From Blasia pusilla (lineage: Eukaryota), in NCBI GenBank assembly GCA_050084515.1, contig CM114271.1, positions 31,930,001 through 31,994,000 on the forward strand: a stretch of DNA of 64,000 nt. Reading direction: 5' to 3'. This document shows, in pieces, positions 3,001 through 63,097 of this stretch. Each line of letters opens with the position of its first letter. The stretch's first letter is position 1. Both the position numbers and the translations under genes were made by a program. The notes below the pieces were generated by a model, which was given only the letters and a program-made list of their open reading frames with translations, searched no databases and was not told the DNA's origin.

Positions 3001-3015
3001 CCTCGATGTACGTAG
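1..3015 (+). pseudogene. Ty3/gypsy pol (RT - RNase H - integrase) with C-terminal PHD finger, frameshifted
   Basis: ORFs 240-662 (RT: DYRPIN, FSTLDL, PFGLKNA, YIDDIL), 644-1309 (RNase H), 1325-2334 (integrase HHCC and core), 2344-3015 ending CMLC..LVCDGCSRGWHMMCL..WVCPRC (C4HC3 PHD). Stops and frameshifts lie between the ORFs. Confidence 0.92.
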
Positions 3016-11917: not shown

Positions 11918-12060
11918 AGTGGTATCAGAGCTTATCCTTGGTGAGCGAGAACTTGGGGTTGTGGGATCAGCCGGACGCTTGGGAAATTTCAAGGTAGCGG
12001 CTAGACTCGGACGCTCGAGGAGGGACGCAAGAAACGAGGAGGAGATCTGAGTGAGTTGGC

Positions 12061-38590: not shown

Positions 38591-40466
38591 GAAGAGAGGA
38601 AGAGAGGAGAGAGGAGAGAGGAAACTACCTTCAACCGAAATAGATACTTTTTTTTGAAGAGAGTTTCCGTTGGGTTGAAGAGAGGAAATTTTTTTGTTTG
38701 AATTTTTTTGCACTTTTTTGTTCATATATTAAGCAGCCCCACAGTTTTTTTTTCCTCTTCCATATTTTGGCAACCCCTCTGAGTCCGACGAGTTGCAAAT
38801 TGCACAAAATTTAGAAAACTGAAAAATCAGTGGAATCATAAGTGTGGAACCAATCACTTTTTCCATCCAAGGTTTGGAAAAAATCTGTCATTTGCCCGGG
38901 GCTGAATAGAGTTCAAGCTCAAAGGGAAGGTTGAGAAAAAAAAAAAGAGTACAATCTAAAACCTCATTTTGCATCCTCAAAGTGGTTTGTTTAAAATACT
39001 TCGAACTTCTTTGAGGGACAGAATTGGTTGGTGGATTCCTACTCCTACCTCCGACTCTCTTAAAACTACCAGCAAAACATAGTACATGTGCTTACAAGGG
39101 AAATACCTTTTGCCACTTGTCTCTCTTTGGACAAAGTCATCACATGAACATGTAGGAAAGCAACAGATGTGCACCACATACATCCCTGTGACACTTGAAT
39201 TTACAGTGTTGTTCCTGACCCAATACATCCTTCCTATTCCATTGCCACTCAAGACATCTTTCGTGGCGATGATCTCCATTTTTGCCTCCCGAGCTGCTGC
39301 AATTCGCTTTGCTCTCTCCACCGTTGGCCTGCACATTCTGTTTCTCTTCACCCCATTTCTAGACTCAAATAGAAATAATGGATTGAGATCATCCACCTTC
39401 TCCGGGTACATGTTGACATCAATCTTGGGTTGAATACGAAATGCGAAGGTCTCTGTAATGCAAACATGCTCCGAACTTCCCTCGTCTACGAGTCTGAAAC
39501 CGGCACTTGTAAGATTGTCCACTTCGTCTTGAGTGCAGTTCGTACCTGCGGCGATGGGCCAAATCGTGGGGGTATTCCTGGGAGCTCCAATGGCAGCCGG
39601 ATAAGACTTCCGGAAAGCGCAAGATTCATTTGGGGGAAGAAGTACTTCAATTGATCCCGGTCCTCGTGAAACGATCAAAGGTTTTGAGTCCCCAAAACCC
39701 AGGCGGTCGCCCGTCGTCCTTGTATAGTTCTTATTTAGGAAAGTGCCGCATGCTCTCCTAATGCCATCAGATCCCGCCCTGCAGGTGGGTCCACGTCCTC
39801 GGTTGCTCCGAGATATATGCCACCGTTTTAGGTTGCAATCCACCTCCATTACCGAATCCCATATTGTTGAACCACCCCGGTGGGGATGTTGCGAACTTCC
39901 AGCAACGGAGGGCTTTTGAAATAAAACATTCACTGATTTTGGAGAAGTAACTCCATCACGGATTTGGGACGGGTCCGGGGTCCCTGAATACCTGGGCGGT
40001 GTAATTTCCTCATCCAAATCAATCACCGGATTCGCTCGATCTTTGCCTCTTCACTGCTCAAGTCAAGATACTTATATGGTCTCCACGAGTCTCGCTCGGA
40101 CTGCTCTACCACCATCTGTATGGGACGTCTTGAAACCCGCCCACGAATATCCCCACCAATGTGTACGTCTTGCTGGAGTGGACTTCCACCACGCACCGTT
40201 GAAGGCTTCCACATACATTTTTCATCACCAGATCTCACAGCCGCCTTGACATAGAGCTCGTAGATCGACGGCCCCTTTCCTTTTGTTATGCCTTTTGTGA
40301 GGAAGATATGGGATGCTGCAGAGTGTAGCATTGCTCTTGCCTGGTCTTGTTGGCATGCCTCCACAAGTGAAATTCATTGGCATGCTTGTGACGACCTCCA
40401 GGAGGAATGAACACTTTCTCCTCCACTTGTGTTGGGGCAGAGGGCATTTTCATGAACGTTCAATCC

Positions 40467-41077
40467 CAGCAACGACGGCAATGTTAGAACGGAATGAAAA
40501 TAACTCAGGAGTCAAAGAAATAAGTGACCTGTCGGAACCAGACGGGTTGCAGGCCCGAGGCATCCCATGAACGACTCTGCGACCCGTCGGGTCCCGACGT
40601 GTTGTAACCTTAAACCCACCTACTGCAACCCCTCGGAACCCGACGGGTTGCAAGGCCGAGGCATCCCATGAACGACTCTGTGACCCGTCGGGTCCCGACG
40701 GGTTGCACACTCGGGTTGCAAGGCCGAGGCATCCCATGAACGACTCTGTGACCCGTCGGGTCCCGACGGGTTGCACACTCGGGTTGCACCAAAAATCTGG
40801 ATGCAACTCGTCGGTTTCCGTCGGGTTGCACCCTCGGGCAACCCGTCGATTTCCGTCGTGTTGCACACTCGGGCAACCTGTCGGTTTCCGTCGGGTTGCA
40901 CACTCGGGCAACCCATCGGTTTCCGTCGGGTTGCACACTCGGGCAACCCGTCGCATCCGACAGCTTGCTTGGTTTCTTGAGTTTGAAATCCATATAGTTC
41001 CCACGCTTCTCACCCTGAGCTACAACTTTACAAAAAATTCTCAGCGTGAGCTTGACAAGACAAAATAGTGAACTCAC
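40467..41077 (-). repeat. Transposase intron filled with ~10 palindrome copies in ~35-bp and ~68-bp tandem units
   Basis: GTGAGT donor at 41077 (phase 0 after MRQ). Repeats such as GCAACCCGTCGGTTTCCGTCGGGTTGCACACTCGG run 40530-40960. Confidence 0.8.
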
Positions 41078-41465
41078 CTGCCGCATGAAGTTTCCCCATT
41101 GTCTCATACATACAGTCCACCAACTCAACCAAGAGCACAACTCTTTGTACTTCCCCTCAATCGCATGCTTCCTCCACCACCCATGAAGTTCTTCTTGGCA
41201 TTCCATGGCCTGCTTCAAGGTTTTGCTGTCCTTGCAGCGTTGGAGTAGAGTGACATGCTCTGTCCTCTTATTCTCCTTGATGCAAGATTTGGTGTACCAG
41301 GTCACAGACTGTTGCCAATGGAAAGAATCCGACCTTTCCCTCTCCGGTTGAACCTCTCCACCCCAGAACACTTCCCAGATAGCAATCCACCCTGGTTGTG
41401 CATTGTCGGCCATGAACCCATAAATTTCCGGAGGTGGCCTTTTGTTTTCCTTCACCACGTCCAAT

Positions 41466-44400
41466 GGTAAATGGTAAATGGTAAATAGATCAAGCCCGTG
41501 GGACCCAAAGGGTCAAAAGGCTGAAAAACACATTACAAGTCATTCATTGACTGACCCTGAAAAAGATCCTTAAGACCTTCTCCTAGCTACAGCCTAGAGC
41601 ACTTGAGCGATGAATTATGAAATTCCCAATAATACCACCTAAATCATAAGGCACAAGCTGTAGTAAAGAATAGAAATTCTCCACATCTATTTTATGAGCT
41701 AGTCTTATTTCTCCATACCTTGGACATGTAACAAACACATGCTCTTCATCCTCAATATTTTCTCCGTCACATAACCTACAAATTCGTTCACTTCTATCAA
41801 TTTTAAACCATCGTCCTTCCTCAATTCCTAGCCTATGAGACCCAGTTCTATGACGTGCGATAATATGTCGTAAGAACGTGGAGATCCCCGCAAGTAGATA
41901 TCCTTGTTCACAATATACAAGCATAGGATTAACATGAAGTTGATAAAACTCCATTTTGGTGCCCGCACTGCTCCAAATGATGTTGAGAGATTGCTTCTGT
42001 AGATGCTCACGGAGGGCCATCGGTTTCAAGTCCCAATCGCGTTCTGCGACATTCCACTTTGAAGACCAAGTCACCACATCCGCCATCCACCCTATGGAAC
42101 GTGTGGCTTGCAAAGCTTGATGAGGGAGGCGAGAAACATCAAGAGATCTCACCCTTGCGATGTAAGTGATGGTCAAGTAAAGAGCTTCAGCTTCTAGAGG
42201 AAGAAAACCTGTTTCCGCAAGAAGAATAGCATACGGAGTTTGGTTTCTTACACCCAATTCTTCTTGTAGAAAGATCTTTTGCACTCTTTCCACGCGCTCC
42301 CAACCTGTCTTCTTACAACTAGGGCCCCAAACTTGGGTCCCATATGAGACCACCGGCAACACTAAGCTCCTAAATAAGAATTTCCTTAGACTCCAAGACA
42401 CAAGATGAGCTCTTCTACACCGGTTTAAAAATGAATATAGAGTTTTGTAACCAGCTTCTACTCTCTTTTGGACGCAAAGTGCCCAACTATAGTCATGAGA
42501 GAAATCGATGCCTAGATATTTGTAACTCTTCACTTGTTCTAATTGTAGACCTTTGTAAAAGAACGAGAACTTGGATCTAGTACCCACTATAATGACTTTA
42601 GACTTGTCCATATTAACCTCCATCTGATTCTGGGTACAAAACCTTGCCAAAGTGTCGAGGTGCTTTTGTAAACTAATGCCATCACGTGCTAGTAATATGA
42701 TATCATCTGCATACAATAGAGCTTTGATGACAAAGTCCCCAAGCTTGACCCCTTCACTATCACATTCCTCCAGCCACTTTTCGATATCATCTATGAAAAC
42801 TCCAAAAAGTGTAGGGGAGAGAGGGCAACCTTAAATGACTCCAATGGTGCTCAAGATCTCTTGAGTTTGTGAACCTTTGATCTTGGCCCGAACGGAATGG
42901 TATAACGTGGCCACGGCTGCTAGGAGATTTTGTGGAACTCCAATGGCTTGCAGCCTTTCCCATAAGAGCTTGCGAGGTACAGTATCAAAAGCTTTCTTGA
43001 AATCGATGAAGCCGCAAAACAAAGCTTTTCCATTGCCCTTAGATTTCTCCCATAAAACACGCAAGGCCAAGATATGATCGATGGTGTTGTATGTTGACGA
43101 AAACCAGCTTGGACCAAGTGCTCTCTTTTGGAAAGACTGTCCATGTGCTCAACCGACTCCACCAATTTCCCAAACAACTTGGCAAAAACACTACCCACCA
43201 TGATAGTGCGATAGTTTGTTACCAAGTCCTTCCTTCCTGATTTGTGAATAGGACAATCTCCGTGAGCGACGACCAGGTTGAAGGAAAACCATAGATAGCA
43301 AAGATCACCCAATAATTTGGTGAGGATCGGTCCAATACAATCTCCTCCCCACTTGAAAAGTTCAATAGAAAGACCATCCAAATCCTCACATTTACCATTG
43401 GCCAATCTTCTTAGTTGAGTCATCACCTCTCCTTGAGAGAATAAGCAGGTATTCCTTCACAACGTGGCATAGACGTAGCATCGGGAAGAAATAGAGCTTT
43501 TGCAGCAAAAGATATCAAAGACTTGGGATCAAGAATAGGTTTTGAAGACCGTACTACTAACCGTCTCCAAAATGATTTGGGGTCCTCATGCACTCCCTTG
43601 TCAAGGACTCTTGTTTCGCCACAAGAAAGCTCGTTTCTTAGATTTCACCAAGTATTTGTAAAGGCTCGTCATAATAAGCCGACTTGGGATATCCAAAGAT
43701 TTATCATTTGCTCGTGCCCTTGCTTGCTTGCATTTGAGTCAAACCACCCATTACAAGGCAGACCTCCTAGCACTTCTATCCCGGTGGCGCAAAAAAGAAC
43801 TTAGATGCATTGTTTTTGAGCAATTCCGTTAGTTGCATACTTGCCGTGTTTGGATCAGGGCTCCATACAATGCGAGTCAAGTGTTCTTGTAAATGTAGCA
43901 TATAAAGATCTTTTTACCAGGATCTAAGCTTAAACTTGGGAGAAGCTAAAATAGATTGACATGTCGAGAGAGGAATTTCCTTTTGATGGTGAGGAGAGAG
44001 TAAACAAGAGAGGTGCATGATCCGATTCAGTGAGGTTCTAGAATATCAAATGTAGAGATAAGAGAGCTATCGTGGCGAGGACAGAAGATAATCGATGGTG
44101 CTAGCGCCTGAGAGAGGAGAAACACGTATTGGAGTGAGAGTTGGGAAAATGAGAGGTTCCATTAAGAACTTTCAAATTACAAGTGGCTCCAAAGGTTAAA
44201 AAATACTCTGTCAAAGGATTTGTAGAAAGATCTAAAGAGATTCTAGACCATAAACCATCCTCATATTCTTCGAGAAGAGGAGAAATCAAGGAATCACTGA
44301 ATTGGGTAAATTAAGCAGTACGTGTGCGAGCATTGAAATCTCCAACTAGAAAGACTTCACCTTTGCTTTGATATTTGAGAACATCCCCAATAAGTCGATG

Positions 44401-46145
44401 GAACGGTTGACTTTGATTGTGAGTGCGTGTTGAGTAGATAGGCATGGAGAGTGGTGCAAAATAACAAACTGCCAAATAACAATAAGATCCCCCAACCAAA
44501 CCAAGACGTAGCCAATGATATTGACCCCGATATCTTGATCTTCTAGATGAATGAGAGGTAGAAATTGAGACCTGATGAAAGTAGCAATACCACCATAACC
44601 CCTTCCTGCCCGTTGCCTTATCTGATTCCATGTCGATCCTACCAAAGTAAACCCTTGCATGTCTGCAATAGTATTGCTCTCATGTTCCCAAGTCTCCACA
44701 ATATTAATAATATCCGCCATCTCCCAAATTGGTAGAGCACTCACATACTTTGTTGTTGAAAGGCCTCGTATATTCCACATCAACACTCTCAGCTTCTTGG
44801 ATTGCTAGGTTGATAACTCTCTTTTTCTCTGGGTAATAATTGCTCGACCATCACGTAGATAAGCAATAAAACCTGCTTCTTGAGCCTCTTTGACCTTTGC
44901 AAGCTCCTTTCTCCTAGCTTCGACTTGTAGAGGTGTGAGATCAGGATCCAACCATATCCTCCGTCCTTTGAGAATGGCCTTGTTAGCCATGGCAGTATCA
45001 CGTTGAGTTTGATCAACAAACTTGACTAGAATGGCACGAGGTTGTGTGCCCGTTTTCCCAACTAAAAGCTTGAGCCAAGTCCGGGTTATGAACATGAAGT
45101 GTATCAACCAAGAACTTGGTGACAACACTCTTCACCTCTTCGCTCTCTTTTTGTAAACCCGAGATTCTCACATTCTTTCTACGGGCAAATTGGTTTTCTT
45201 TTTCTATCTCTTGCTCTTGTGAGAAAGAGATATGAGCAACTTTGTAGCCTCAAGATAAGATTTCATTTTCACTTCTAAAGTTTCAACAACCTCATGCAAT
45301 CCTGAACTATTGGGAGTAGTCACCAAGGATGATGCCTTCTCTTGAACATCCGCAAGATTTGGAAAGATCCAAAGATCACACTAGAACTATCTTTCAACAC
45401 TTTCTTGAACCTCTTGCGTTGCCTTCAACTCTCGGATTTGAATATGTGCATGGTTTAATTGAGAAGTTTGTACCTTGAATTCTTGTCGAAGCTCTTTAAC
45501 TTCATGCAAGACGACTTGCACTAGATTCAAGATTTCGTCTTGAGTGGTCATCCTGTAGTCGACTTCACTGCATCCCAGAAAGTATAATTGAATCTCCAAC
45601 ACCACACAACTTCTGCTCTAGAAGTTGGTTGTACTTGAAATTTCTAGGATCAAGACGTTTCTAGACATTCTACGTGGAGTCCAAATCTCAGCTTCATATG
45701 ACACTCCACCTCAAAGTTATGGCCTCGGCAAGATTCAGATCTGAAATGCTCAAATCTAGAAGTGCAGAAACTCAAATCTCTCACAACTTCGTGTGTATAA
45801 CTCGGTTGTGCTTAGAAATTTGAGGGCTAGGGCGCCTCTTTATACTCCACGTCACCTCCAAATCTCAGCTTCATATGACACTCCACCTCAAAGTAATAGC
45901 CTCGGAAATATTCCGATCTGAAATGCTAAAATCTAGAAGTGCGGAAACTCAAATCTCTCACAACTTCGTGTTTATAACTCGGTTGTGCTTGCAAATCTGA
46001 GGGCTAGGGCGCCTTTTTATATTCCCCGTCCGCTCCAAATCTCAGATTCATATGACACTCCACCTCAAAGTTATGGCCTCAGAAAGATTCAGATCTGAAA
46101 TGCTCAAATCTAGAAGTGCAGAAACTCAAATCTCTCACAACTTCG
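41466..46145 (-). mobile_element. LINE family A, copy A2, inserted in the transposase gene
   Basis: Collinear with A1. (TTTACCA)n tail at 41466. About 2.7 monomers at 45670-46145. Removal with a 2-bp AT duplication restores the frame MCRLLL-LDVVKEN. Confidence 0.92.
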
Positions 46146-47984
46146 ATAAGAGTAACCGGCACATCTTCAAACTGCCAACGTCTTCTGCCTTTACTTCACA
46201 GAGACATATAGTTTTGAGTCCCTTCTCCACATGGTCATAAACGTGAGCACCCATCCTCAACCATCCGTTCACCACTCTGCAGCAAATATCAAAGCTTACC
46301 CAGCTCCCGTAAAGATCTTCCCCTTCCCTCATTCGATCTATAAGATCAAGGCCACTCGACGGACCTGTGGTTGACATTTTGAAGACATAGGCCCTAGATC
46401 CCTTGCCTCCTTGGCCCATGAACTGCCATCTCTGAATGAATGGAAATCTGGAGTTGGCCTTGATTCTGGCAATGGCATCCATTTATTTGTCTTTCCATCC
46501 GAACTCGTATTTGACGCAAACAAATTCGAAGCATTCAGGATCAGCGAGAAATGCGAGATTTTCCCAGAGTTGTTTCTCCTCAACCGCCGTGATCTCGCCT
46601 TGTCTAGGGATTCCAAGCAATTGTTCACAAATTTGTGATGCCGTTGTGAGCTTGATCACTCCGGGCTTTGAACCCGGAGAGTTTCTGTAGACCTCGGCTA
46701 CTTTCTTCGCCACATCCTCCTTGATGTGTCTTTGAATTGCATCGGTCACAGGATGAGTGTGGGAGCCAACATGAACTGCCAGCCTTGTATACTCTGACGT
46801 GGAGCCGAAGTCGTGGACAATGAAAAATATGTATGCATGACACGCTCCAACACAGAAGGGCGATGCCTGACAATGAGGACATTGATGGCCTCCCGGCGGT
46901 ATGGTGGCACCGACCTCGTATGGAGTTTCTGCATTCTTGGGAGGGAATTGGGACGTATTGACTCGCCCGTTGCGCTCTAGATACGGGCATGCTGGACTTC
47001 TACACTCCAAGGCTCCCACGCATTGGCGGCGGGAGACAATCCAAGGACCATCTGGAATGGAAGCACTAGTCCGTTGAAGCCTGCACCATCGATGACAATC
47101 AAACTTTCTGTCCATACCCTTCAGGCGTCCTCCATCCTTCTTTTGAGCAGGAGCAGCAAGTGGAGGCAACTCAAAAATGCAATTACCATCGTACGTGGGC
47201 GGCAGCTCGTCGACAAGAATGTGCTTGAACATTTTCAAGGCCAGAGACGAAAGCAAACTATTGCCTGATACTCGCAAGAGGAACGAGTAGGCGGACAGAG
47301 GGCCCAATTGGTGTCCGACAAATCCACTGAGGTTGATAACATCCGGAATCTCTTCAGGAAGAACAACATTATTACGAGCGTGCGAAGTTGGAGTCGAAGC
47401 CGGATCTGCAAAGCTTGGAGTTGTAAACGTAGAGCTCGGAGCACTAGGAAATTCTAGACCGTCTACTTGGGAAACAAAAGAATTCAGGGGCAGGCCGTAA
47501 ACTATGTATTGACCATTTGCTAGAGGTAGGAGATTCCATACTTTACGGTCTGAGGTCACTGGCTGGACTGTCTCACCTATTATGTCTTCCGTACCGTCCA
47601 CCCTAACATCTTTGGATACAAAGATGGTTCCAATTTGGAGAAGAAATCGAACAGACAGAAAATTTTCATCCACTGCTATGAAAGACTCACGAGCTTGGGG
47701 TCGAATGATTTCTGATTGAGGAAGGGCCGCCAGATGACTGCCACAAGTGAGTTTAACATAATTATCCATTCCAAGAAGATTCCAACGGGAGGACACTGAG
47801 AATGAGAATGAGAATTTTTAATTTATAGTGAATAGGAAAATAGATACTTCTGACAAATTTTTACTAACAAGATGAATTCGGTGGGTGACATTGTTTGACA
47901 CAATGGATCCAATTCTGTAACACATTCAATTCTGTTGCAATATGTTACCGGATTTGGGAAGCAGAGGGTTGTGAATCACACTTG

Positions 47985-48665
47985 GAACCCGTCGGAGTCC
48001 TGGTAACTCCAAAATTACCCGAAGCTAACCGAAGCCTGCAACCCGTCGGCTTCGGACGGGTTGCACTCTTCTGCCAAACATTGTCGAAGTGAGCAACCCG
48101 TCGCTCTCCGACGAGTTGCTCGGATACCGCTGCTTCTTGCCCGAAGATGCCGGAGGCGTGCAAACCGCCGTCTGTTCGAGCGAGTTCGCGGGTGCCTCAC
48201 CTATTTGCCCAAAGACGGCGCGGCGTGCAACGTCGCCCTCTCCAACGGGTTGCGCAAGGGCCTCGCCTTGTGGTGTTTACATGAAGTGTGCAGCCAGCCG
48301 GACTCCGACGACTTGCACGGGAAGCCCGCGTTCTTAACCCTTGACGAGGGAAGCGTGCAACCCAACGGTCTCCGACGGATTTCTTGGGTACGTCCCGTTC
48401 CCGTCCCAAACACTGCGGAGGCGCGCAACATGTCGGTCTCCGACGGGTTGCGCGAGTACCTCGCGTTCTTTTCCGAAGACGATGGAGGCGCTCAACCCGT
48501 CGGTCTCCGACGGGTTGCTCGCGCACGTGGCGACGTACCCAGGATGGCGGAGGCGCGCAACCTGTCGGACTCTGACGGGTTGCCATTTTTCACCTCCGGA
48601 ATTCCGTAACCTCCGGCACGTCGCCGTCGAAAGGACGACGAGACCCAACGGTCAGCCCAACGGCT
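47985..48665. repeat. GC-rich array of ~11 palindrome copies (~55-68-bp period) between the two divergent genes
   Basis: Examples: GCAACCCGTCGGCTTCGGACGGGTTGC (~48038), GCAACCCGTCGCTCTCCGACGAGTTGC (~48093), CAACCCGTCGGTCTCCGACGGGTTG (~48493). Confidence 0.85.
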
Positions 48666-48672
48666 AGAAAAG

Positions 48673-48680
48673 TATAAATA
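48673..48680 (+). promoter_or_regulatory. Putative TATA box of the ParB/MTase-like gene
   Basis: TATAAATA lies immediately after the palindrome array and ~300 bp before the coding region. Confidence 0.5.
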
Positions 48681-50265: not shown

Positions 50266-50279
50266 TTTAGGGTTTAGGG
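50266..50279 (+). repeat. Two plant telomeric repeats (TTTAGGG)2 at an insertion junction
   Basis: TTTAGGGTTTAGGG read directly. Confidence 0.6.
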
Positions 50280-50515
50280 CGAGAAACATCTCTTGATGTT
50301 TCTCGCCTCCCTCATCAAGCTTTGCGAGCCACACGTTCCATAGGGTGGATGGCGGATGTGGTGACTTGGTCTTCAAAGTGGAATGTGGCGGAATGCGATT
50401 GGGACTTGAAACCGATGGCCCTCCGTGAGCATCTATAGAAGCAATCTCTCAACATCATTTGGAGCAGTCCGGGCACCAAAATGGAGTTTTATCAACTTCA
50501 TGTTAATCCTATGCT
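50278..50515 (+). mobile_element. Internal LINE A fragment starting with a snap-back hairpin
   Basis: Matches 57297-57525. It begins GGCGAGAAACATC-TCTT-GATGTTTCTCGCC. Confidence 0.85.
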
Positions 50516-50539
50516 TGACACGAAGTTGTGAGAGATTTA

Positions 50540-51746: not shown

Positions 51747-54565
51747 CAAGCACAACCGAGTTATACACACGAAGTTGTGAGAGATTTGAGTTTCTGCGTT
51801 TCTAGATTTGAGCATTTCAGATCTGAATCTTGCCGAGGCCATAACTTTGAGGTGGAGTGTCATATGAAGCTGAGATTTGGAGGCAACGTGAAGTATAAAC
51901 TGGCGCCCTAGCTCTCAGATTTGCAAGCACAACCGAGTTATACACACGAAGTTGTGAGAAATTTGAGTTTCTACACTTCTAGATTTGAGCATTTCAGATC
52001 TGAATCTTGCCGAGGCCATAACTTTGAGGTGGAGTGTCATATGATGCTGAGATTTGGAGGCCACGTGGAGTATAAATTGGCGCCTTAGCCCTCAGATTTG
52101 CAAGCAGAACCGAGTTATACACTCGAAGTTGTGAGAGATTTGAGTTTCTGCGTTTCTAGATTTGAGCATTTCAGATCTGAATCTTGCCGAGGCCATAACT
52201 TTGAGGTGGAATGTCATATGAAGCTGAGATTTGGAGGCGACGTTAAGTATAAACTGGTGCCCTAGCCCTCAGATTTGCAAGCAGAACCGAGTTATACACT
52301 CGAAGTTGTGAGAGATTTGAGTTTCAAATCTGAATCTTGCCGAGGCCACTTCTAGATTTGAGCATTTCAAATCTGAATCTTGCCGAGGCCATAACTTTGA
52401 GGTGGAGTGTCATATGACGCTGAGATTTGGAGGCCACGTGGAGTATAGAGAGGCGCCGTAGCCCTCAGATTTGCAAGCAGAACCAAGTTATACACTCGAA
52501 GTTGTGAGAGATTTGAGTTTCTGCGTTTCTAGATTTGAGCATTTCAGATCTGAATCTTGCCGAGGCCATAACTTTGAGGTGGAGTGTCATATGATGCTGA
52601 GATTTGGAGGCGACGTGGAGTATAAACTGGCGCCCTAGCCCTCAGATTTGAAAGCAGAACCGAGTTATACACTCGAAGTTGTGAGAGATTTGAGTTTCTG
52701 CGTTTCTAGATTTGAGCATTTCAGATGTGAATCTTGCCGAGGCCATAACTTTGAGGTGGAATGTCATATGATGCTAAGATTTGGAGGCAACGTGAAGTAT
52801 AAAGAGGCGCCCTAGCCCTTATATTTGCAAGCACAACCCAGTTATACACACGAAGTGGTGAAAAATTTGAGTTTCTGCATTCCTAGATTTGAGCATTTCA
52901 GATCTGAATCTTGCCGAGGCCATAACTTTGAGGTGGAGTGTCATATGATGCTGAGATTTGGAGGCAACGTGGAGTATAGAGAGGCGCCGTAGCCCTCATA
53001 TTTGCAAGCACAACCGAGTTACACACACGAAGTGGTGAGAGATTTGAGTTTCTGCGTTTCTAGATTTGAGCATTTCAGATCTGAATCTTGCCGAGGCCAT
53101 AACTTTGAGGTGGAGTGTCATATGAAGCTGAGATTTGGAGGCAACATGAAGTATAAGCTGGTGCCCTAGCCCTCAGATTTGCAAGCACAACCAAGTTATA
53201 GACACGAAGTTGTGAGAAATTTGAGTTTCTACACTTCTAGATTTGAGCATTTCAGATCTGAATCTTGCCGAGGCCATAACTTTGAGGTGGAGTGTCATAT
53301 GACGCTGAGATTTGGAGGCAACGTGGAGTATAGAGAGGCGCCGTAGCCCTCATATTTGCAAGCACAACCGATTTACACACACGAAGTGGTGAGAGATTTG
53401 AGTTTCTGCGTTTCTAGATTTGAGCATTTTAGATCTGAATCTTGCCGAGGCCATAACTTTGAGGTGGAGTGTCATATGAAGCTAAGATTTGGAGGCCACG
53501 TGTAGTATAAACTGGCGCCCTAGCCCTCAGATTTGCAAGCAGAACCGAGTTATACACTCGAAGTTGTGAGAAATTTGAGTTTCTACACTTCTAGATTTGA
53601 GCATTTCAGATCTGAATCTTGCGGAGGCCATAACTTTGAGGTGGAGTGTCATATGACGCTGAGATTTGGAGGCAACGTGGAGTATAGAGAGGCGCCATAG
53701 CGTTGTTATTTGCAAGCACAACCGAGTTACACACACGAAGTGGTGAGAGATTTGAGTTTCTGCGTTTCTAGATTTGAGCATTTTAGATCTGAATCTTGCC
53801 GAGGCCATAACTTTGAGGTGGAGTGTCATATGAAGCTAAGATTTGGAGGCCACGTGTAGTATAAACTGGCCCTAGCCCTCAGATTTGCAAGCAGAACCGA
53901 GTTATACACTCGAAGTTGTGAGAAATTTGAGTTTCTACACTTCTAGATTTGAGCATTTCAGGATCTGAATCTTATGGAGGCCATAACTTTGAGGTGGAGT
54001 GTCATATGACGCTGAGATTTGGAGGCAACGTGGAGTATAGAGAGGCGCCATAGCGTTGTTATTTGCAAGCACAACCGAGTTACACACACGAAGTGGTGAG
54101 AGATTTGAGTTTCTGCGTTTCTAGATTTGAGCATTTTAGATCTGAATCTTGCCGAGGCCATAACTTTGAGGTGGAGTGTCATATGAAGCTGAGATTTGGA
54201 GGCCACGTGTAGTATAAACTGGTGCCCTAGCCCTCAGATTTGCAAGCAGAACCGAGTTATACACTCGAAGTTGTGAGAAATTTGAGTTTCAACACTTCTA
54301 GATTTGAGCATTTCAGATCTGAATCTTGCGGAGGCCATAACTTTGAGGTGGAGTGTCATATGACGCTGAGATTTGGAGGCAACGTGGAGTATAGAGAGGC
54401 GCCATAGCCCTGTTATTTGCAAGCAGAACCGAGTTATACACACGAAGTTGTGAGAGATTTGAGTTTCTGCGTTTGTAGATTTGAGCATTTCACATGTGAA
54501 TCTTGCCGAGGCCATAACTTTGAGGTGGAGTGTCATATGAATCTGAGATTTGGAGGCAACGTGGA
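51747..54565 (+). repeat. Tandem array of ~16 x 177-bp monomers (5' end of LINE A3)
   Basis: ATAACTTTGAGG occurs at 51841, 52018 and 52195 (period 177). There is a short internal duplication near 52325-52350. Confidence 0.95.
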
Positions 54566-57500
54566 ATGTCTAGAGGCGTCTTAATCCTAGAAATTTCAAG
54601 TACAACCAACTTCTAGAGCAGAAGTTGTGTGGTGTTGGAGATTCAATTATACTTTCTGGGATGCAGTGAAGTCGACTACAAGATGACCACTCGAGACGAA
54701 ATCTTGAATCTAGTGCAAGTGGTCTTGCATGAAGTGAAAAGGCTTCGACAAGAATTCAATGTACAAACTTCTCAATTAAACCATGCACATATTCAAATCC
54801 GAGAGTTGAAGGCAACGCAAGAGGTTCTGAAGAAAGTGTTGAAAGATAGTTCTAGTGAGATGCTCAAATCTCTCACAACTTCGTCTGTATAACTCGGTTG
54901 TGCTTGCAAATCTGAGGGCTAGGGCGCCTCTTTATACTCCACGTCGCCTCCAAATCTCAGATTCATATGACACTCCACCTCAAAGTTATGGCCTCGGAAA
55001 GATTCAGATCTGAAATGCTCAAATCTAGAAGTGCAGAAACTCAAATCTCTCACAACTTCGTGTGTATAACTCAATTGTGCTTGCAAAGAGAAGGCATCAT
55101 CCTTGGTGACTTCTTCCAATAGTTCAGGATTGCATGAGGTTGTTGAAACTTTAGAAGTGAAAATGAAATCTTATGCTGAAGCTACAAAGGTTGCTCATAT
55201 CTCTTTCTGTCAAGAGCAAGAGATAGAAAAAGAAAACCAATTTGCCCGTAGAAAGAATGTGAGAATCTCAGGTTTACCGGAAACAGAGAGCGAAGAGGTG
55301 AAGAGTGTTGTCACCAAGTTCTTGGTTGATACACTTCATGTTCATAACCCGGACTTGGCTCAAGCTTTTCGCATTGGGAAAACGGGCACACAACCTCGTG
55401 CCATTCTAGTCAAGTTTGTTGATCAAACTCAACGTGATCTTGCCATGGCTAACAAGGCCATTCTCAAGGGCGGAGGATATGGTTGGATCGATCTCACACC
55501 TCTACAAGTTGAAGCTAGGAGAAAGGAGCTTGCAAAGGTCAAAGAGGCTCAAGAAGCGAGGTTTTATTGCTTATCTACGTGGTCGAGCAATTGTTACCGA
55601 GAGAAAAAGAGAGTTATCAACCTAGCAATCCAAGAAGAGAGTCTTGATGTGGAATATACGAGGCCTTTCAACAACAAAGTATGTGAGTGCTCTACCAATT
55701 TGGGAGATGGCGAGATATTATCAATATTGTGGAGACTTGGGAACATGAGAGCAATACTATTGCGAGAGATGCAAGGGTTTACTTTGGTAGGATCGACATG
55801 GAATCAAAGAAGGCAACGGGCGGGGAAGGGGTTATGGCGGTATTGCTACTTTCATCAGGTCTCAATTTCTACCTCTCATTCATCTAGAAGATCAAGATAT
55901 CGGGGGTCAATATCATTGGCTACGTCTTGGTTTCGTTGGGGGATCTTATTATTATTTGGCGGTTTGTTATTTTGCACCACTCTCCATGCCTATCTACTCA
56001 ACACGCACTCACAATCGAAGTCAACCGTTCCATCGACTTATTGGGGATGTTCTCATAAATCAAAGCAAAGGTGAAGTCTTTCTAGTTGGAGATTTCAATG
56101 CTCGACATTAACGTCTTGCTCAATTTACCCAATTCAGTGATTCCTTGATTTCTCCTCTTCTCAAGAATATGAGGATGGTTTATGGTCTAGAATCTCTTGA
56201 GATCTTTCTACAAATCCTTTGTGAGTATTTTTAACCTTTGGAGCCACTTGTAATTTGAAAGTTCTTAATGGAACCTCTCATTTTCCCAACTCTCACCCAA
56301 TACGTGTTTCTCCTTTATTGGCGCTAGCACCATCGATTATCTTACATCCTCTCGCCCGTGATAGCTCTCTTATCTCTACATTTGATATTCTAGAACCTCA
56401 CTGAATCGGATCATGCACCTCTCTTGTTTACTCTCTCTTTGTCAAAGGAAATTCCTCTCTCGACATGTCAATCTATTTTAGCTTCTCCCAAGTTTCGCTT
56501 AGATCCTGGTAAAAAAGATCTTTATATGCTACATTTACAAGAACACTTGACTCGCATTGTATGGAGCCCTGATCCAAACACGGCAAGTATGCAACTAACG
56601 GAATTGCTCAAAAACAATGCATCTAAGTTCTTTTCGCGCCACTGGGATAGAAGTCCTAGGAGGCTGCCTTGTAATGGGTGGTTTGACTCTGAATGCAAGC
56701 AAGCAAGGGCACGAGCAGTTGATAAATCTTTGGATATCCCAAGTCGGCTTATTATGACGAGCCTTTACAAATACTTGGTGAAATCTAAGAAACGAGCTTT
56801 CTTGCGGCGAAAACAAGAGTCCTTGACAAGGGAGCTGCATGAGGACCCAAGTCTAAAGTCATTATAGTGGGTACTAGATCCAAGTTCTCGTTCTTTTACA
56901 AAGTTCTACAATTAGAACAAGTGAAGAGTTACAAATATCTAGGCATCGATTTCTCTCATGATTATAGTTGGGCACTTTGCATGCAAAAGAGAGTAGAAGC
57001 TGGTTACAAAGCTCTATATTCATTTTTAAACCGGTGTAGAAGAGCTCATCTTGTGTCTTGGAGTCTTAGGAAATTCTTATTTAGGAGCTTAGTGTTGCCG
57101 GTGGTCTTATATGGGACCCAAGTTTAGGTAAGAAGACATGTTGGGAGCGCGTGGAAAGAATGCAAAAGATCTTTCTACAAGAAGAATTGGGTGTAAGAAA
57201 CCAAACTCCGTATGCTATTCTTCTTGCGGAAACAGGTTTTCTTCCTCTAGAAGCAGAAGCTCTTTACTTGACCATCACTTACATCGCAAGGGTGAGATCT
57301 CTTGATGTTTCTCGCCTCCCTCATCAAGCTTTGCGAGCCACACGTTTCATAAGGTGGATGGCGGATGTGGTGACTTGGTCTTCAAAGTGGAATGTGGCAG
57401 AACGCGATTGGGACTTGAAACCGATGGCCCTCCGTGAGCATCTACAGAAGCAATCTCTCAACATCATTTGGAGCAGTGCGGGCACCAAAATAAAGTTTTA

Positions 57501-57975
57501 TCAACTTCATGTTAATCCTATGCTTGTATATTGTGAACAAGGATACCTACTTGAGGGGATCTCCACGTTCTTACGACATATTATCGCACGTCATAGAACT
57601 GGGTCTCATAGGCTAGGAATTGAGGAAGGACGATGGTTTAAAATTGATAGAAGTGAACGAATTTGTAGGTTATGTGCCGGAGAAAATATTGAAGATGAAG
57701 AGCATGTGTTTGTTACATGTCCAAGGTATGGAGAAATAAGACTAGCTCATAAAATAGATGTGGAGAATTTCTATTCTTTACTACAGCTAGTGCCTTATGA
57801 TTTAGGTTGTTATATTAGGGATGTCATCATTCATCGCTCAAGTGCTCTATGCTATAGCTAGGAGAAGGTCTTAAGGATCTTTTTCAGGGTCAGTGAATGA
57901 ATGACTTGTAATGTGTTTTTCAGCCTTTTGACCCTTTGGGTCCCACGGGCTTGATCTATTTACCATTTACCATTT
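51747..57975 (+). mobile_element. LINE family A, copy A3 (internal deletion of RT core at ~56850)
   Basis: ORF1 starts at ATG 54683. APE region about 55650-56420. The sequence jumps from HEDP to KSKVIIVG near 56850. ORF 57151-57861, then a (TTTACCA)n tail. Confidence 0.92.
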
Positions 57976-58428
57976 ATATTGTGAACAAGGATACCTACTT
58001 GTAGGGATCTCCACGTTCTTACGACATATTATCGCACGTCATAGAACTGGGTCACATAGGCTAGGAATTGAGGAAGGATGATGGTTTCAAATTGATAGAA
58101 ATGAACGAATTTGTAGGTTATGTGCCGGAGAAAATATTGAAGATGAAGAGCATGTGTTTGTTACATGTCCAAGGTATGAAGAAATTAGACTAGCTCATAA
58201 AATAGATGTGGAGAATTTCTATTCTTTACTACAGCTAGTGCCTTATGATTTAGGTTGTTATCTTAGGACGTCATCATTCATCGCTCAAGTGCTCTAGGCT
58301 GTAGCTTGGAGAAGGTCTTAAGGATCTTTTTCAGGGTCAGTGAATGAATGACTTGTAATGTGTTTTTCAGCCTTTTGACCCTTTGGGTCCCACGGGCTTG
58401 ATCTATTTACCATTTACCATTTACCATT
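57976..58428 (+). mobile_element. 5'-truncated LINE A 3' end in tandem with A3
   Basis: Near-duplicate of 57527-57975 with diagnostic differences, and it has its own tail. Confidence 0.9.
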
Positions 58429-58430
58429 TT

Positions 58431-59165
58431 ACTTACGCAACTCGTCGGGACGGTTGTTGGGATGCTTTAACACTTACGCAACTCGTTGGACTCCGACCAA
58501 TTGCTCGATTGATGAATGGATAAGGTTTTTTTTTGCCAAAAGCAACTCGTCGGACTCCGACCAGTTGCTCGACTCGACGCTTTTTTGGATGTTTTTTTAA
58601 GAATGCAACTCGTCGAACTCCGACGAGTTGTTCGATTGACCACACATTTAATTAGTTTTTGGCCGAAAGCAAACCGTCAGAGTCCGACGGGTTGCTCGAC
58701 TCGCCGCCTTATCATGATGTTTTTTGAAGAATGCAACTCGTCGGACTCCGACGAGTTGTTCGACTGACTGCAGGTTTAGAATGTTTTTTGCCCAAAGCAA
58801 CCCGTCGGAGTCCGACGGGTTGCTTGCCTCGAAACTGTTTTTGGCCGAAATAAACCCGTCAGAGTCCGACGGGTTGCATTTGGAAGTTGGTTCCCCAAAT
58901 TTCACGTCAAATTGCAAGTTTCCATTCAATTGCGCAACCTGTCGGACTCCGACGGGTTGCTATGTTCACGTTAGTATGTTCAGTTGCACAACCCGTCAGA
59001 GTCCGACGGGTTGAAACCAGGCATTAGCAAATCTGAATGCAATCGGTCGGACTCCAACGGGTTGCATCATTTAGCTCGTTGCTAGAATCCGACCTTGAGC
59101 TGTGACGACCCGTCGGAGTCCGACGGGTTGCAGGAACCCATGTAATTTCCTGACGGGTTGAGTTT
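58431..59165. repeat. Intron 1 (distal part) with ~13 palindrome copies, often ~62-65 bp apart
   Basis: Example: perfect GCAACCCGTCGGAGTCCGACGGGTTGC at about 58797-58823. Confidence 0.88.
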
Positions 59166-61319
59166 GGATGTGCAAGATTGTATCGGAGGGGAATGTCACC
59201 CACCACTAGATCCAGGACTGCGATTGGGTGAGGAAGGTGCTTACGACGCACCCGGGAGAGTACAGGGGGTTCTTGGGCGATGCCCTTGTCAATCAGATGC
59301 TTGCAAAGGGTGCTCAAATTAAAAAGAAAACTTGGGCAAATAAGTTTATTTCCCAAGATGCAGCCATAACCATCCTTTTCTGGTCGAAGATACAGGCCGC
59401 GAAGAAGAGCGCTGCACTAGAGCTGGAGCGGAGGGAGAAGGTATCTGCGTCTGAGCGCGGGAAATTCATCCAAGTTGCAGTATCTACAACAACAAAATAC
59501 ACGGCGAGCAAGATGCAGCGATACATCAGCATTCTCAACCCCGAACTTGGTCCGGAGTTCTACAAGGAGCTGAAGGCGATTATCAAGCGCCAACGGAAAA
59601 GGGATGAAGATCCGCATGGTCGGATTGGGGAGAAAGTGTCCCTAGATCGAGTGCATCGGTTTGCGTTGTCCGGCATAAGCGAGTTTAAGAGGATCCGACT
59701 GATGAAAATCAGTCTCGAGGGCACAGAGGCCCAGAAGAGGGCGGCACACCATCCTCCGGGTGTGTCCGATCCAGTGATCATCTCCCACTGGCTACGCGAA
59801 TGGTCGTTCTGGGACGCGTTGCGGGTTATCGGGAAGTCCGTGCTGGACGGTCTGCAAGCGGAGCTCAGAAGATTAGAGCCCATCCCGGATGAAGCAAACC
59901 TTGAAAGTTCTGGAGATTTCGAGGTTTGGCTCGACGACATCCGGGGCAAGCCAACCAAAAACCTAGGATTCAAGACAATGTTCAAGGTTTGCGTCCTCCC
60001 TCAGGCAGAGCTTGACGAAGAGGTAGAGGGGAACAAACGGGATCAAGCGAAGAAGAAGCGAGATCTACAAGAGCAGACGGCCAATTCTGTTCGACTAAAA
60101 GCTGCCCAACGGATGGTCTTCAGGTACCTCGTCCAGTGTAAGAATGCAGGTACGTGGGGAAAATTACCGGCAGCCTTGAAATTGTGGGCTTCGCTGTCGG
60201 ATGCAGAGACATTCTCCATGTATGACATGGAGATGGGGCAGCACATGTCCGATTGGGAGGTGGAGAATTTCCCCATTTGGCTCGACTTCAACGACCCTGA
60301 AGACATCACCGATAAGGATTTACAAGTGCTTCATGATGCAGTGGCCTCAAGACAAGACGACATCCCCAATTTCGTGCAGACTGAAGACTTCTTCGAAGGA
60401 GATGCAGAAGAGCAGGCCTACGAGACAGCTGAGTTGGCTTCCAAGGTCCGCACAGCCAAAGACAAATCCACAACGGGTCTCAAAGGCAAGGCGAGAGGAG
60501 GGAAAAATTCAGAGGCCGAGTCTTCCCAAAGAGAGGCTCAAGATTCAAGGCCAGAAGCGGAATCGTCCGGGCGAGCGGGGAGAGAGGGTCGGACCAGGTC
60601 CTCGACGAAAAAAACCCCACAAGAGTCTGAGGTCATAGAGACCCCGACAAGCCGTCCGCAGACTCGGGAGAAGCGGAAGCGAGAGGTGCCAGGGTTGTCC
60701 CAAGGAGAATACAGTCCATCATCCTTGGGAAGACACAGACAAAGTACGACCCGGACAAGTGTCCTCCTTCAGTTCACTCCTTTACTGGATGAGCTGAAGA
60801 GGTTCAGTTCTCAAGCGTCTACACCAACCATCGATAAATTGACAACGCTGGGACGGAAGCTCCAACAAAACGGGCACGCTGCCTGGACGGTGAATGGAGT
60901 GGTCGAAGAGGTTGCGGTGGATCTCTTGATCACTGATCTGCCCTCGGGGTTGCGACTTTGGGGCGAGAATCCGTCGGACGACGTACCTGAGTGGAATGTG
61001 CCGCTCTCTTATGACCAGATTGCACTATTGTTCTCCTTTGCAGACGCCTATCTGAGTGACAGGGGCTGCTTCTTGGTGTTGACTGGAGGGAGCGAGGACG
61101 AGCTCTTCAACCTCCAGTGCATCAAGAGGTCGCTAAAGTGGAGGACGGCGCAATCGTGGATCATCAAAAACGAGTACCCACTCCGATCCGCGACGAGTCA
61201 GATTCGGGTAAGGCTCAATTCCTGTACTATAATCTCAATTATATTTTAATGATGTGTATAATGAGTGTTCATCTCCGTTGAGTGAGTATAATGAGTGTCA
61301 ATCTCCGTTTTTTTGTCCG

Positions 61320-61700
61320 TGAGCAACCCGTCGGAAGGCGACGGGTTGCTGGCTTAGAGTAGCCCATGCTCGGCTGAGAGCAACCTGTCGGTTTCCGACG
61401 GGTTGCATCTTTCCCACATACACAGGGAAAACCGTGGTGTACCTGCAACCCGTCGGAACCCGACGGGTTGCAGTTGCTTTTGGTTTTTCCCTGTGTTTCC
61501 GGAAAGCTGCAACCCGTCTGATAGCGACGGGTTGCTCTCAGGCGAGCATGGGCTGCTCTAGGCCAGCAACCCGTCGCCTTCCGACGGGTTGCTCAATTTC
61601 ACTAACATAGCCCGACCGGGTTGTTTTAGTCCCTGACCAACCCGTCGGAAGGCGACGGGTTGGTCCGGGACAAAACAACCCGTCGGACTCCGACAGGTTG
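61320..61700. repeat. Intron 2 with 7 palindromes, five of them forming a ~275-bp inverted repeat (61320-61595)
   Basis: The left arm GAGCAACCCGTCGGAAGGCGACGGGTTGCTGGC..ACACAGGGAAAACC is mirrored by GGTTTTTCCCTGTGT..GCCAGCAACCCGTCGCCTTCCGACGGGTTGCTC. Confidence 0.88.
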
Positions 61701-63097
61701 ATCCAAAGTCAGTAATTGAAAATGTTCTCAAGCCGACTTCTTTAGTTGCTGACATTGTTTCCAACGTGCTGATTTACAGATGGACCACTCCTACGTGTAC
61801 TGCTTCGTTCGGCCCGAGCACAATTTCCAGGTGTTCAAGATCCAGGATCCTGTGGATCCATGCTCAGATGGGTACAGCTTAGATAGTTTGTACAATTCCC
61901 CCCCGGGAATTTACATGCAAGACAGTACCCCACTTCTCGGAGGAAGGGAAAAGTCGCGAGCCCTGATGCAAACGCTCATCGAGCTCTGCTCAAGGGGGGT
62001 GACTTGGTGTTTGACTTAGTGGGACTTTCAGGGGCAAGTATCAAAGGCGCCTGGCAGAGTGGCAGGAACATTCTCTGCCTCGAGGGAAGGCAGGAACTAT
62101 TTGACCTTTGCAAGGAGGCAAAGGCAGAATACGAAAGGCTCGTTGGGGCGTACAACTCTCCACCGAAGCCGAGAGCTCCGGTTCCAGACCCACCCTTGGT
62201 AGTGACTCCATCGTCACTTCCAACGATTCCAAAAATCGGGAGGGCAAGGCCGAAAGTAATTTTGCAAGAGCTCTCAGACGATGACGAGTGAGTTCAAAGA
62301 ACTCAACGACCCAGCTTGACTGCAGCGTTTGGAGTAGGGAGTTTTTTGATGATGAGGCAAAAGATTTCATAGAATAGATCAAATGTACAGTTCCGAGCTT
62401 TTTTCAGATGATATAAAGCATAAGATTTTTTCGAACGATGGTGGTGCTTGTAAAAGTTTGCTAAACATTTTTTGTCTTTTCGAATGTGATCGTCTATGTA
62501 CTCCGCGGACTTCTATTTTGCAACCCGTCGGATTTCTCCTACTTGCAACTTTTCACTTTTTGACCACAACACCTTTTTACCACTTCCAGGCAACCTGTCG
62601 GATTCCGACAGGTTGCCTGATCGGACTCTTTCCCTGTTGGTCCAACTTAAGAGGCAGTCTGGCAGGCTTCTTCCCTTGGCACCTTCCCCACAACTCGTAA
62701 AGGCAGGCGTAGGCTTCTTTTCTTCTCTCAGACGTGTTGGATTCCTACTACCTGTGCGATTGCCATAATGGTATTACCGGGACGGAGCACATATTGATAC
62801 TGGATGGGTGTCACATTGCAGAGCGTACAAGGTATACTGCCGAGGAAGGCGGTGGGACTCAAATCAGGTTACATGGGACCGTTATGGTGTACCTAGTGGG
62901 GGGGGGGCCAAGGCTCTCGAATTTGCCAACTTTTTTCGATCCCCGTCTACAATCGGCCAGAGGAGCCACTTGTATCCCAGGACATTCCTTTGGTACTATC
63001 ACCGAGGAGAGTTAGGAGTAAATTTGTAGATGACGAGGCTGAAGAAATCCTAGACTAGGTCAAATGTACATTTCCGAGGTTCCTTCGGAGGAAATGA

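Follow-up and report, generated by a model that had tools for sequence, protein, structure and literature searches.

Why should a single transposon-like element carry about forty copies of one 27-bp palindrome in its non-coding DNA, and by what, if anything, are these copies read? The question is raised by a stretch of 64,000 nucleotides from Blasia pusilla (GenBank assembly GCA_050084515.1, contig CM114271.1, positions 31,930,001 to 31,994,000 of the forward strand), which is referred to as "the window" in this study and in which all positions are counted from the first letter. The element lies in the right-hand part of the window and comprises a transposase-like gene on the minus strand and, on the plus strand, putative genes that had been labelled ParB-like and methyltransferase (MTase)-like. 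We hold, with a probability of roughly 0.6, that the palindromes are arrays of sites for a protein that is encoded by the element and recognises the element's own non-coding DNA. The binding of a protein, its identity and the consequences of its binding are what we infer from the arrangement described below.

The palindrome and its distribution

When the half-site GCAACCCGTCGGA was searched on both strands of the window with up to two mismatches, 72 matches were obtained where 0.73 were expected, and none of 100 shuffled sequences reached this number. The exact 10-mer CAACCCGTCG occurs 30 times against an expectation of 0.02. All half-sites found with up to two mismatches are confined to positions 38770-62616. 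Pairing of these half-sites yielded 39 full palindromes of 27 bp, 38 of them with the layout 13+1+13 nt, the exception being a 26-nt copy at 40943. The conserved part is the outer 11 nt of each arm, GCAACCCGTCG, around a variable centre of 5 nt: information content is 1.0-1.8 bits at arm positions 1-12 and 0.70 bits at position 13. The inner CGG/CCG is less conserved than the outer arm, and the centre is GANTC-like in 15 of the 39 copies. Summed over all copies, the arms depart from the consensus at 120 of 1014 positions (about 12%); the two arms are perfectly complementary over 13+13 nt in two copies and over the outer 11+11 nt in six. The initial annotation had described about 40 copies with a variable centre of 3-5 nt, in a series of clusters and with none in the first 38 kb. 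Our counts recover the same clusters, trace the variable centre to the weakly conserved innermost bases, and agree on the empty first 38 kb at the two-mismatch threshold. Outside the window, the perfect 27-mer had no match in a prokaryote collection of 596 Gb, and a looser 25-mer with 20 fixed bases had three single, non-arrayed matches in that collection, which is estimated to be about the chance level.

The motif is excluded from exons and from long interspersed elements (LINEs) that were inserted later. With up to three mismatches the window contains 97 half-sites, 86 of which fall within the approximately 4.5 kb of non-coding, non-LINE DNA of the 24-kb span, as against five in 19.5 kb of exon and LINE sequence; the remaining six are weak matches outside the span. 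No palindrome was found in the LINE copies of the window with up to two mismatches. The earlier statement that the copies are restricted to introns, promoter and flanks is therefore upheld.

The individual groups are placed as follows. A single palindrome at 38770-38796 lies in the 3' flank, about 190 bp 3' of the transposase stop. Cluster A (40524-40968), with 10 palindromes arranged in a 55/68-bp sub-array and a 35-bp sub-array of 4.3 units, occupies most of a transposase intron. Cluster B (47984-48583) contains seven palindromes (48038-48583) and half-sites at 47984 and 48241, spaced by 65-68 bp, and is located between the divergent transposase gene and the plus-strand ParB-like gene. Half-sites at 50172 and 50213 follow a GT donor at 50153; a LINE fragment (50288-50517) separates them from the sites at 50587-50636, where a palindrome at 50610 and a half-site at 50587 lie in an intron of an inverted paralogue fragment. 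Directly upstream of a long plus-strand exon is cluster C (58437-59131), which has 11 palindromes (58478-59131) and half-sites at 58437 and 58865, mostly at 63-64-bp spacing. Cluster D (61323-61701; seven palindromes) is in the intron that begins at the GT donor at 61208, and the last two palindromes (62520-62616), of which the one at 62520 has a decayed right arm, lie downstream of an exon with an MTase motif I-like string.

The clusters are also rich in CpG. The ratio of observed to expected CpG is 0.98-1.38 in the four large clusters (40524-40968, 47984-48665, 58437-59131 and 61323-61701), compared to 0.55-0.61 in the LINEs and 0.69 in the whole window; we count this in favour of the arrays being recognised, and it hints indirectly at hypomethylation. 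The right arms of cluster C have been preserved much better than the left ones, with six exact 10-mers on the minus strand and one on the plus strand, and the left arm often carries a C-to-T change at position 6. This asymmetry suggests strand-biased deamination, perhaps linked to transcription.

Spacers, tandem growth and the two arms

Between clusters, the palindromes are 0.76-0.79 identical, whereas the spacers are 0.42-0.46 identical, compared to 0.42-0.47 for shuffled spacers. Within clusters the values are 0.78-0.82 for palindromes and 0.49-0.56 for spacers (shuffled, 0.43-0.46), with some spacer pairs reaching 0.81-0.93. As the initial annotation had noted, then, the sequences between copies differ from cluster to cluster, with an identity that is that of shuffled sequence. 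Spacers as well conserved as the arms, set beforehand as the mark of an ordinary minisatellite and as counting against a binding site, were found only in the young 35-bp sub-array, in which conservation is 0.94 for the spacer and 0.91 for the core.

At the same time, the arrays bear plain traces of duplication. Tandem Repeats Finder reported arrays with periods of 35, 64/128, 67 and 68 bp; successive copies are mostly 51-71 bp apart, in clusters with unrelated spacers, and 35 bp apart in the one young sub-array. Cluster D is a 276-bp fold-back (61320-61595) with a palindrome at its centre and arms (61320-61414 and 61501-61595) that are 92% complementary. Tandem amplification is thus real, yet the core outlasts the spacers. 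It had been proposed that the motif reflects selection rather than simple tandem amplification. The first part of this proposal finds support, as the motif is kept among unrelated spacers; the second does not, as amplification clearly also occurs and is not an alternative to selection.

The same pattern is seen in a pair of diverged paralogues. The inverted paralogue fragment (50685-51746, minus strand) is 75-77% identical to 60121-61198 and has a donor and intronic palindromes of its own. Past the exon end and donor that the two paralogues share, their introns are unalignable, and yet the motif is present in each.

To what extent do the two arms depend on each other? Pairing was compared with 500 shuffles in 37 of the 39 palindromes; those at 40943 (26 nt long) and 62520 (decayed) were set aside. 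The arms pair in 85.9% of cells, compared to 85.4% in the shuffles, of which 126 were at least as high. Double changes occupy eight cells where 3.9 were expected, a number reached in 10 of the 500 shuffles; these cells lie at four pairs (2.9 expected), with four of the eight at pair 6/22, and copies in which C6 is changed to T are concentrated in related tandem units of cluster C. The arms have been kept as sequence and not as a base-paired stem, which fits two sequence-specific half-sites better than a hairpin and is in line with the earlier suggestion of a protein-binding site.

These results suggest how the arrays might work. The unit would be two inverted 11-nt half-sites 5 bp apart, suited to a dimer or to two monomers, and stacks of such units would fill the element's bidirectional promoter, the introns of its genes and their 3' flank. 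The arrays may be lengthened and shortened by tandem and fold-back duplication, the half-sites retaining their sequence throughout. Their role could be cis-regulation or anti-silencing, that is, self-marking of the element, and possibly also assembly of the transpososome. Recognition by an element-encoded protein is supported by the enrichment of half-sites, their exclusion from exons and LINEs, the chance-level spacers, the independence of the arms, the presence of the motif in an intron of a 75-77% diverged paralogue, and the GCM-type fold predicted in the transposase-like protein, to which we now turn.

Candidate binders and competing explanations

The transposase-like gene (38980-47817, minus strand) has exons at about 47817-46138, 41462-41079, 40463-40164 and 39855-38980. 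Its parts are a GCM-like DNA-binding domain, a D..D..(C/D)xxH..ES core pattern and a SWIM-like C-terminus. It is broken by LINE B (41463-46146, minus strand), a later insertion into the transposase open reading frame (ORF), and by in-frame stops at 46483-46485 and 40374-40376; judged by its reading frame, this copy is dead. A full HMMER scan with the minus-strand ORF at 46483-47817 found 198 relatives at E≤1e-3. The Pfam scans of this study covered 19 and then 150 window ORFs (about 36-64 kb), 28 ORFs mostly from the first 38 kb, where retroelement domains were recognised, and 29 and then 16 relatives or pieces of them; none of the 29 relatives had any domain. When the translated window was compared with the relatives, residues 13-377 of one of them, P0034, aligned to 47274-46177 and residues 390-553 to 41458-40976, and P0031 likewise aligned across LINE B, in order and with adjoining residue numbers. 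As both proteins align on the two sides with adjoining residues, LINE B is a clean insertion into the ORF. Farther on, residues 313-417 of P0009 align to 40463-40164 and residues 447-735 of P0012 to 39852-38989. The latter segment contains a CxC...CxH string that is conserved in P0012, and with this C-terminal segment the Pfam SWIM profile gave E=0.025 and 14.6 bits, under its cut-off of 19.6 bits. Cluster A is intronic because it lies between the donor CAG/GTGAGT at about 41078 (minus strand) and the exon starting near 40463, with homologous protein segments on both sides. At this very point P0034 continues into "VS...", suggesting that the intron position is old.

The DNA-binding domain was recognised by its predicted fold. 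An AlphaFold2 model of first-exon residues 170-444, built with 42 relatives, had a mean predicted local distance difference test score (pLDDT) of 92.8, and Cys/His columns are conserved. The sole high-probability match of this model in the PDB was 1ODH_A, an animal GCM domain on DNA (E 8.6e-3, probability 0.99, template-modelling score 0.46 on the target), other fold matches having probabilities of at most 0.30. A whole-protein model of P0034 gave the same single match (E 2.8e-3, probability 1.00). Sequence identity between the modelled domain and 1ODH is 11-13%; Pfam GCM had no match among the window ORFs, and an Atlas score of 0.75 for GCM was a weak lead. The initial annotation had named the GCM domain of the transposase as one candidate binder, on the ground that the arm contains CGGGT, as does the animal GCM site. 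The domain is now backed by the fold; the likeness of the sites is a lead, since CGGGT matches five of the eight bases of the animal site, 5'-ATGCGGGT-3' (Hashemolhosseini and Wegner 2004, PMC2172107). Animal GCM, in contrast, is known as a transcription factor that acts on single 8-bp sites, not on 27-bp palindromes.

In P0034 the core pattern consists of D341, D407 and C436xxH439, with 66 residues between the two aspartates compared to 69 in Muta1, and the window encodes GGESVH at 40424. In MULE (Mutator-like element) and hAT transposases, the DDE triad of the core is accompanied by a CxxH motif and by a W that lies between its second D and its E (PMC5225508). MULE transposases combine a WRKY-GCM1 finger, a DDE core and a SWIM finger, and a dual role of the finger in site recognition and self-regulation has been proposed (Babu et al. 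2006, PMC1702500). Because finger, core and SWIM segment occur here in that order, we call the gene MULE-like: the predicted fold shows the finger, and the core and SWIM segments are suggested by their patterns. P0009 and P0012 lack the D..D part of the core, their GCM-like domain being joined to the C-terminal region, and in P0081 the start of the transposase is joined to a homologue of the long plus-strand exon (59168-59602); these proteins may be DNA-binding-only splice isoforms or rearranged copies. In word-indexed homology searches, P0001 had no match, P0002 had none among longer proteins, and the A2 profile found only P0053; a search of PDB sequences with the A2 profile gave no meaningful match.

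Our preferred candidate for the binder, still a tentative one, is the GCM-like domain of this transposase or a DNA-binding-only isoform of it, because it is the only DNA-binding domain in the element that is verified, namely by a structural model, and because the arm shares CGGGT with the GCM site. Several observations weigh against recognition by an element-encoded protein, or by the transposase in particular. The catalytic core is recognised by residue pattern only: Pfam MULE had no match in the window ORFs or the relatives, and the pLDDT of the core in the AlphaFold2 model is 30-60. The arrays are internal and the element ends were not found, whereas the sites of MULE transposases are usually in terminal repeats, namely long terminal inverted repeats with target-site duplications of 8-10 bp on either side. 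The centres of the two half-sites are 16 bp apart, approximately 1.5 helical turns, which places them on opposite faces of the DNA and is awkward for a compact dimer, and no helical phase is common to spacings of 55, 64 and 68 bp. Much of the copy number can be accounted for by local duplication alone. Present-day constraint cannot be shown, as the copy is dead and its arms are about 12% off the consensus. A search of the ORFs of 150 relatives for palindrome-derived peptides found none, which is a weak negative as ORFs rarely read into introns. Finally, the one published comment that we can cite on similar arrays credits a ParB-like protein, not the transposase (bioRxiv 10.1101/2025.02.11.637652).

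The strongest competitor is indeed a ParB-like accessory protein, possibly one polypeptide with an MTase-like part, that would bind the palindromes in the manner of ParB on parS or of SopB on sopC and would direct modification of DNA or chromatin over the element. The possible ParB/Srx-like ORFs extend from 48700 to the GT donor at 50153 on the plus strand, with three in-frame stops or unrecognised short introns, and are preceded by a TATA box, TATAAATA, at about 48673. They encode IWDGNHRFMTW at about 49996-50030 (DGNHR at 50002-50016), which we take to resemble the DGxHR motif of ParB/Srx-type proteins, and this DGNHR-type motif is the only source of the "ParB-like" label. Pfam and NCBIfam profiles for ParBc, helix-turn-helix and ParA had no matches in the window ORFs, the ParB-like ORF had no meaningful match among PDB sequences, and neither a helix-turn-helix nor any other specific DNA-binding domain is evident in these ORFs. 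Bacterial ParB-parS systems have a palindrome of about 16 bp, a helix-turn-helix, a GERRxR CTP-binding box and a ParA partner. The site here is, at 27 bp, much longer than parS, and a CTP-dependent clamp of the parS type is unlikely for a domain without the GERRxR box. The earlier reading of the palindrome as a parS-like loading site thus finds no support in Pfam, NCBIfam or the PDB.

The MTase-like gene (59210-62290, plus strand) consists of the long exon at 59210-61207, a palindrome-filled intron and an exon at about 61887-62290. A 679-aa ORF (59210-61249), which contains the GT donor at 61208, encodes TDLPSG, like MTase motif IV, at 60932-60949, and the ORF at 61887-62291 encodes VFDLVGLSGASIKGAWQSGRNILCLEGRQELF at 62007-62102, which resembles MTase motif I. 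The motif IV-like string reads DLPS in both paralogues (60932-60949, and about 51000 on the minus strand), not D/N/S-PP-Y/F/W; if the product is an MTase, its catalytic loop would be unusual or inactive. The MTase-like ORFs had no match in Pfam or NCBIfam, the motif I exon had no meaningful match among PDB sequences, and Atlas scores of 0.81-0.84 for N6_N4_Mtase were weak leads. The MTase label of the initial annotation is therefore left with motif-like strings and these leads. Over the window ORFs at about 36-64 kb, Pfam recognised only LINE domains and the sub-threshold SWIM; among 150 ORFs of at least 55 aa at 38.3-63 kb, it found no Plavaka, Transposase_21, N6_N4_Mtase or SET domain at E≤0.5. 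From their sequences, the ParB and MTase labels are leads only.

In favour of a ParB-like binder, clusters B and C flank the ParB-like ORFs and other clusters lie in introns of the MTase-like gene; however, cluster A and the copy at 38770 are in or behind the transposase gene and not beside the ParB-like gene. The same model has been proposed for PAG3 of red-algal Plavaka elements (Petroll et al. 2025), a fused ParB-like and MTase gene has been described in an Ectocarpus Sola1 element (PMC12477816), and the binder of VANDAL elements is an accessory protein, not the transposase (PMC5735166). Because of the published red-algal parallel and the VANDAL precedent, we consider a ParB-like protein possible and nearly as likely a binder as the GCM-like domain, which we favour slightly. 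An extended form of this model is more doubtful: a ParB/Srx-like domain together with an N6A/N4C-type MTase, of bacterial ancestry, would nucleate on about 40 dimer sites and modify the element's DNA or chromatin in cis to escape silencing, the CpG-rich arrays being its footprint.

Could the palindromes have no dedicated binder at all? They might be a structure-prone minisatellite core that was spread by slippage, fold-back priming and gene conversion, the arrays being neutral by-products. All large clusters are tandem, the spacer of the 35-bp sub-array is as well conserved as its core, cluster D is a fold-back centred on a palindrome, and the excess of double changes is as template switching within a palindrome would give. 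However, this explanation does not account for the fact that one 11-nt arm turns up at seven or more places whose spacers are unrelated, for the motif in the unalignable intron of the diverged paralogue, or for its absence from 38 kb of neighbouring repeat-rich DNA, and 33 of the 39 copies are imperfect over the outer 11+11 nt. We regard it as improbable.

Still less likely is that the palindromes are sites of a host transcription factor or CpG-island-like promoter or enhancer modules serving expression of the element. Cluster B lies in the bidirectional promoter just upstream of the TATA box, the clusters are CpG-rich in a CpG-depleted background, and the inner CGG-N3-CCG resembles the dimer sites of fungal Zn2Cys6 proteins. 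However, the remaining 38 kb of the window lack the motif, promoters hold only a minority of the copies, the majority being in introns and a 3' flank, and it is the inner CGG/CCG that is less conserved than the outer arm. Least credible of all is that the palindrome is the target of the element's MTase, an earlier idea, or a functional RNA or DNA hairpin (an intron structure or a small-RNA precursor): the consensus centre GANTC is the CcrM/HinfI site of beta-class MTases and a variable centre between conserved arms looks like a stem-loop, but GANTC occurs in the above-mentioned minority of copies, MTase sites are 4-8 bp and not 27 bp long, motif IV is DLPS rather than DPPY in both paralogues, the arms pair no more than shuffled ones, and no Rfam family reached its gathering score in 38000-64000.

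Surrounding repeats, known parallels and significance

Self-comparison of the window revealed four copies of one LINE family, 94-98% identical, with tandem repeats of 177 bp at their 5' ends and (ATTTACC)n tails at their 3' ends. Besides LINE B, these are LINE A (4149-8704, minus strand), LINE C (51747-58429, plus strand; a later insertion with 15.8 units of the 177-bp 5' repeat and the (ATTTACC)n tail) and LINE D (63093-64000, minus strand). LINE C has an internal duplication (57527-57976 and 57975-58423). Direct repeats of about 105 bp and about 95% identity (50166-50269 and 58431-58535) bracket the LINE fragment, the inverted paralogue exon and LINE C; the bracketed block looks like one insertion with a long target duplication or a 5' transduction. 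At its left junction are plant-type telomere units, (TTTAGGG)2, at 50270-50283. The idea that the LINEs target the palindromes was dropped: there are no copies near LINE A, and about 500 bp separate the ends of LINEs B and D from the closest palindrome.

As to the edges of the element, the 25 longest inverted-repeat pairs listed for the window included only LINE-related and paralogue pairs and no element termini. On the right, the element is either cut by LINE D or extends past the end of the window. On the left, a second, unrelated LINE-like sequence (36352-38623), with a reverse transcriptase ORF at 37172-38182 and a (GAGAGGAA)5 tail at 38586-38623, ends just left of the first palindrome and may mark or mask the element's edge. 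Ty3/gypsy-type pieces lie within 171-3015 and 10912-17897: one encodes reverse transcriptase, RNase H and integrase followed by a PHD finger (2335-3015), and the other has 362-bp repeats that are 97% identical (10912-11273 and 17236-17597) and an inverted copy at 17588-17897.

Repeated short motifs that are bound by an element's own protein are known from other systems. In En/Spm, the 12-bp TnpA motifs are of this kind. In the F plasmid, the 43-bp units of sopC are repeated in tandem and each contains a palindromic site for SopB, a protein of the ParB family; the family of repeats in oriP of Epstein-Barr virus (EBV) is a similar array. The arrays described here resemble sopC and oriP in having tandem units of tens of base pairs with one palindromic dimer site each; unlike those systems, which serve the segregation of episomes, no ParA partner, episomal state or verified ParB domain was seen in the element.

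The layout itself has already been reported in plant and algal transposons, and the element described here is a further case. In Arabidopsis, the 9-bp motif bound by VANC21 has built up as tandem repeats in the introns and upstream regions of VANDAL21, and binding of VANC frees the element of DNA methylation (Hosaka et al. 2017, PMC5735166). As in the VANDAL21 and VANDAL6 arrays, the motif here is in introns and upstream regions and not in coding sequence, and the tandem repeats differ between related copies. VANDAL elements also belong to the Mutator superfamily, to which the MULE-like gene here points, and their binder is encoded by the element, as the candidate here would be. On the other hand, VANC motifs are 8-9 bp long and non-palindromic, in contrast to a 27-bp palindrome, no VANC-like protein was found among the window ORFs, and hypomethylation, demonstrated for VANC, is here hinted at by CpG retention only. 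In another Mutator-type element, Muta1, transposase binding and excision rise with the number of subterminal repeats, and palindromy matters for binding to the terminal motif (Liu and Wessler 2017, PMC5499845); unlike the arrays here, which are internal (promoter and introns), the Muta1 repeats lie in the terminal inverted repeats and the subterminal few hundred bp. The AtMu1 transposase is reported, in a preprint, to activate cognate copies in a sequence-specific manner (bioRxiv 10.64898/2026.08.24.746577).

In giant Plavaka elements of Bostrychia, tandem inverted-repeat arrays lie beside PAG3, which has a ParB-like N-terminus and a 2-oxoglutarate (2OG) oxygenase domain, and PAG2, an N6-adenine MTase (PF01555 plus SET), travels with PAG3 among Plavaka, Mutator, Zisupton and Fanzor elements (Petroll et al. 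2025, bioRxiv 10.1101/2025.02.11.637652). Both cases have inverted-repeat arrays inside a giant DNA transposon, along with ParB-like and N6/N4 MTase-like genes, which in our case are only possible ones. In contrast, the transposase in Bostrychia is of the Plavaka/EnSpm type, whereas the one here has a GCM-like finger, a SWIM-like end and a MULE/hAT-type core and no Plavaka match in Pfam; neither a SET nor a 2OG domain was seen here, and the likeness is one between the published description of the arrays and ours, not between repeat sequences. The idea that the transposase-like gene corresponds to the unknown PAG1 of Plavaka elements was rejected on account of its D..D..CxxH..ES pattern. The 21.5-kb Sola1 element of Ectocarpus has a gene for a 1104-aa ParB-like plus MTase protein on the strand opposite the transposase (Dinatale et al. 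2025, PMC12477816).

The molecular details of how transposons discriminate their own DNA from that of the host have been worked out in very few systems, of which Arabidopsis VANC is the main one. Self-binding and self-modification have been proposed for giant algal transposons that carry ParB-like and MTase genes, and we found no target sequence given in the accounts cited here. For the transposase family at 46486-47310 (minus strand), with relatives P0006-P0155, Pfam offers no model; its confidently predicted fold of two subdomains, GCM-like and N-terminal in a MULE-like transposase, is relevant to the proposal that WRKY-GCM1 factors arose from transposons. If the model of a ParB/MTase pair that marks its own element were true, it would be a eukaryotic counterpart of parS-ParB loading in an epigenetic use. 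In either case, the window supplies a defined 27-bp candidate site, with the anatomy of its half-sites, and two candidate binders, one with a confidently predicted GCM-type fold and one ParB-like.

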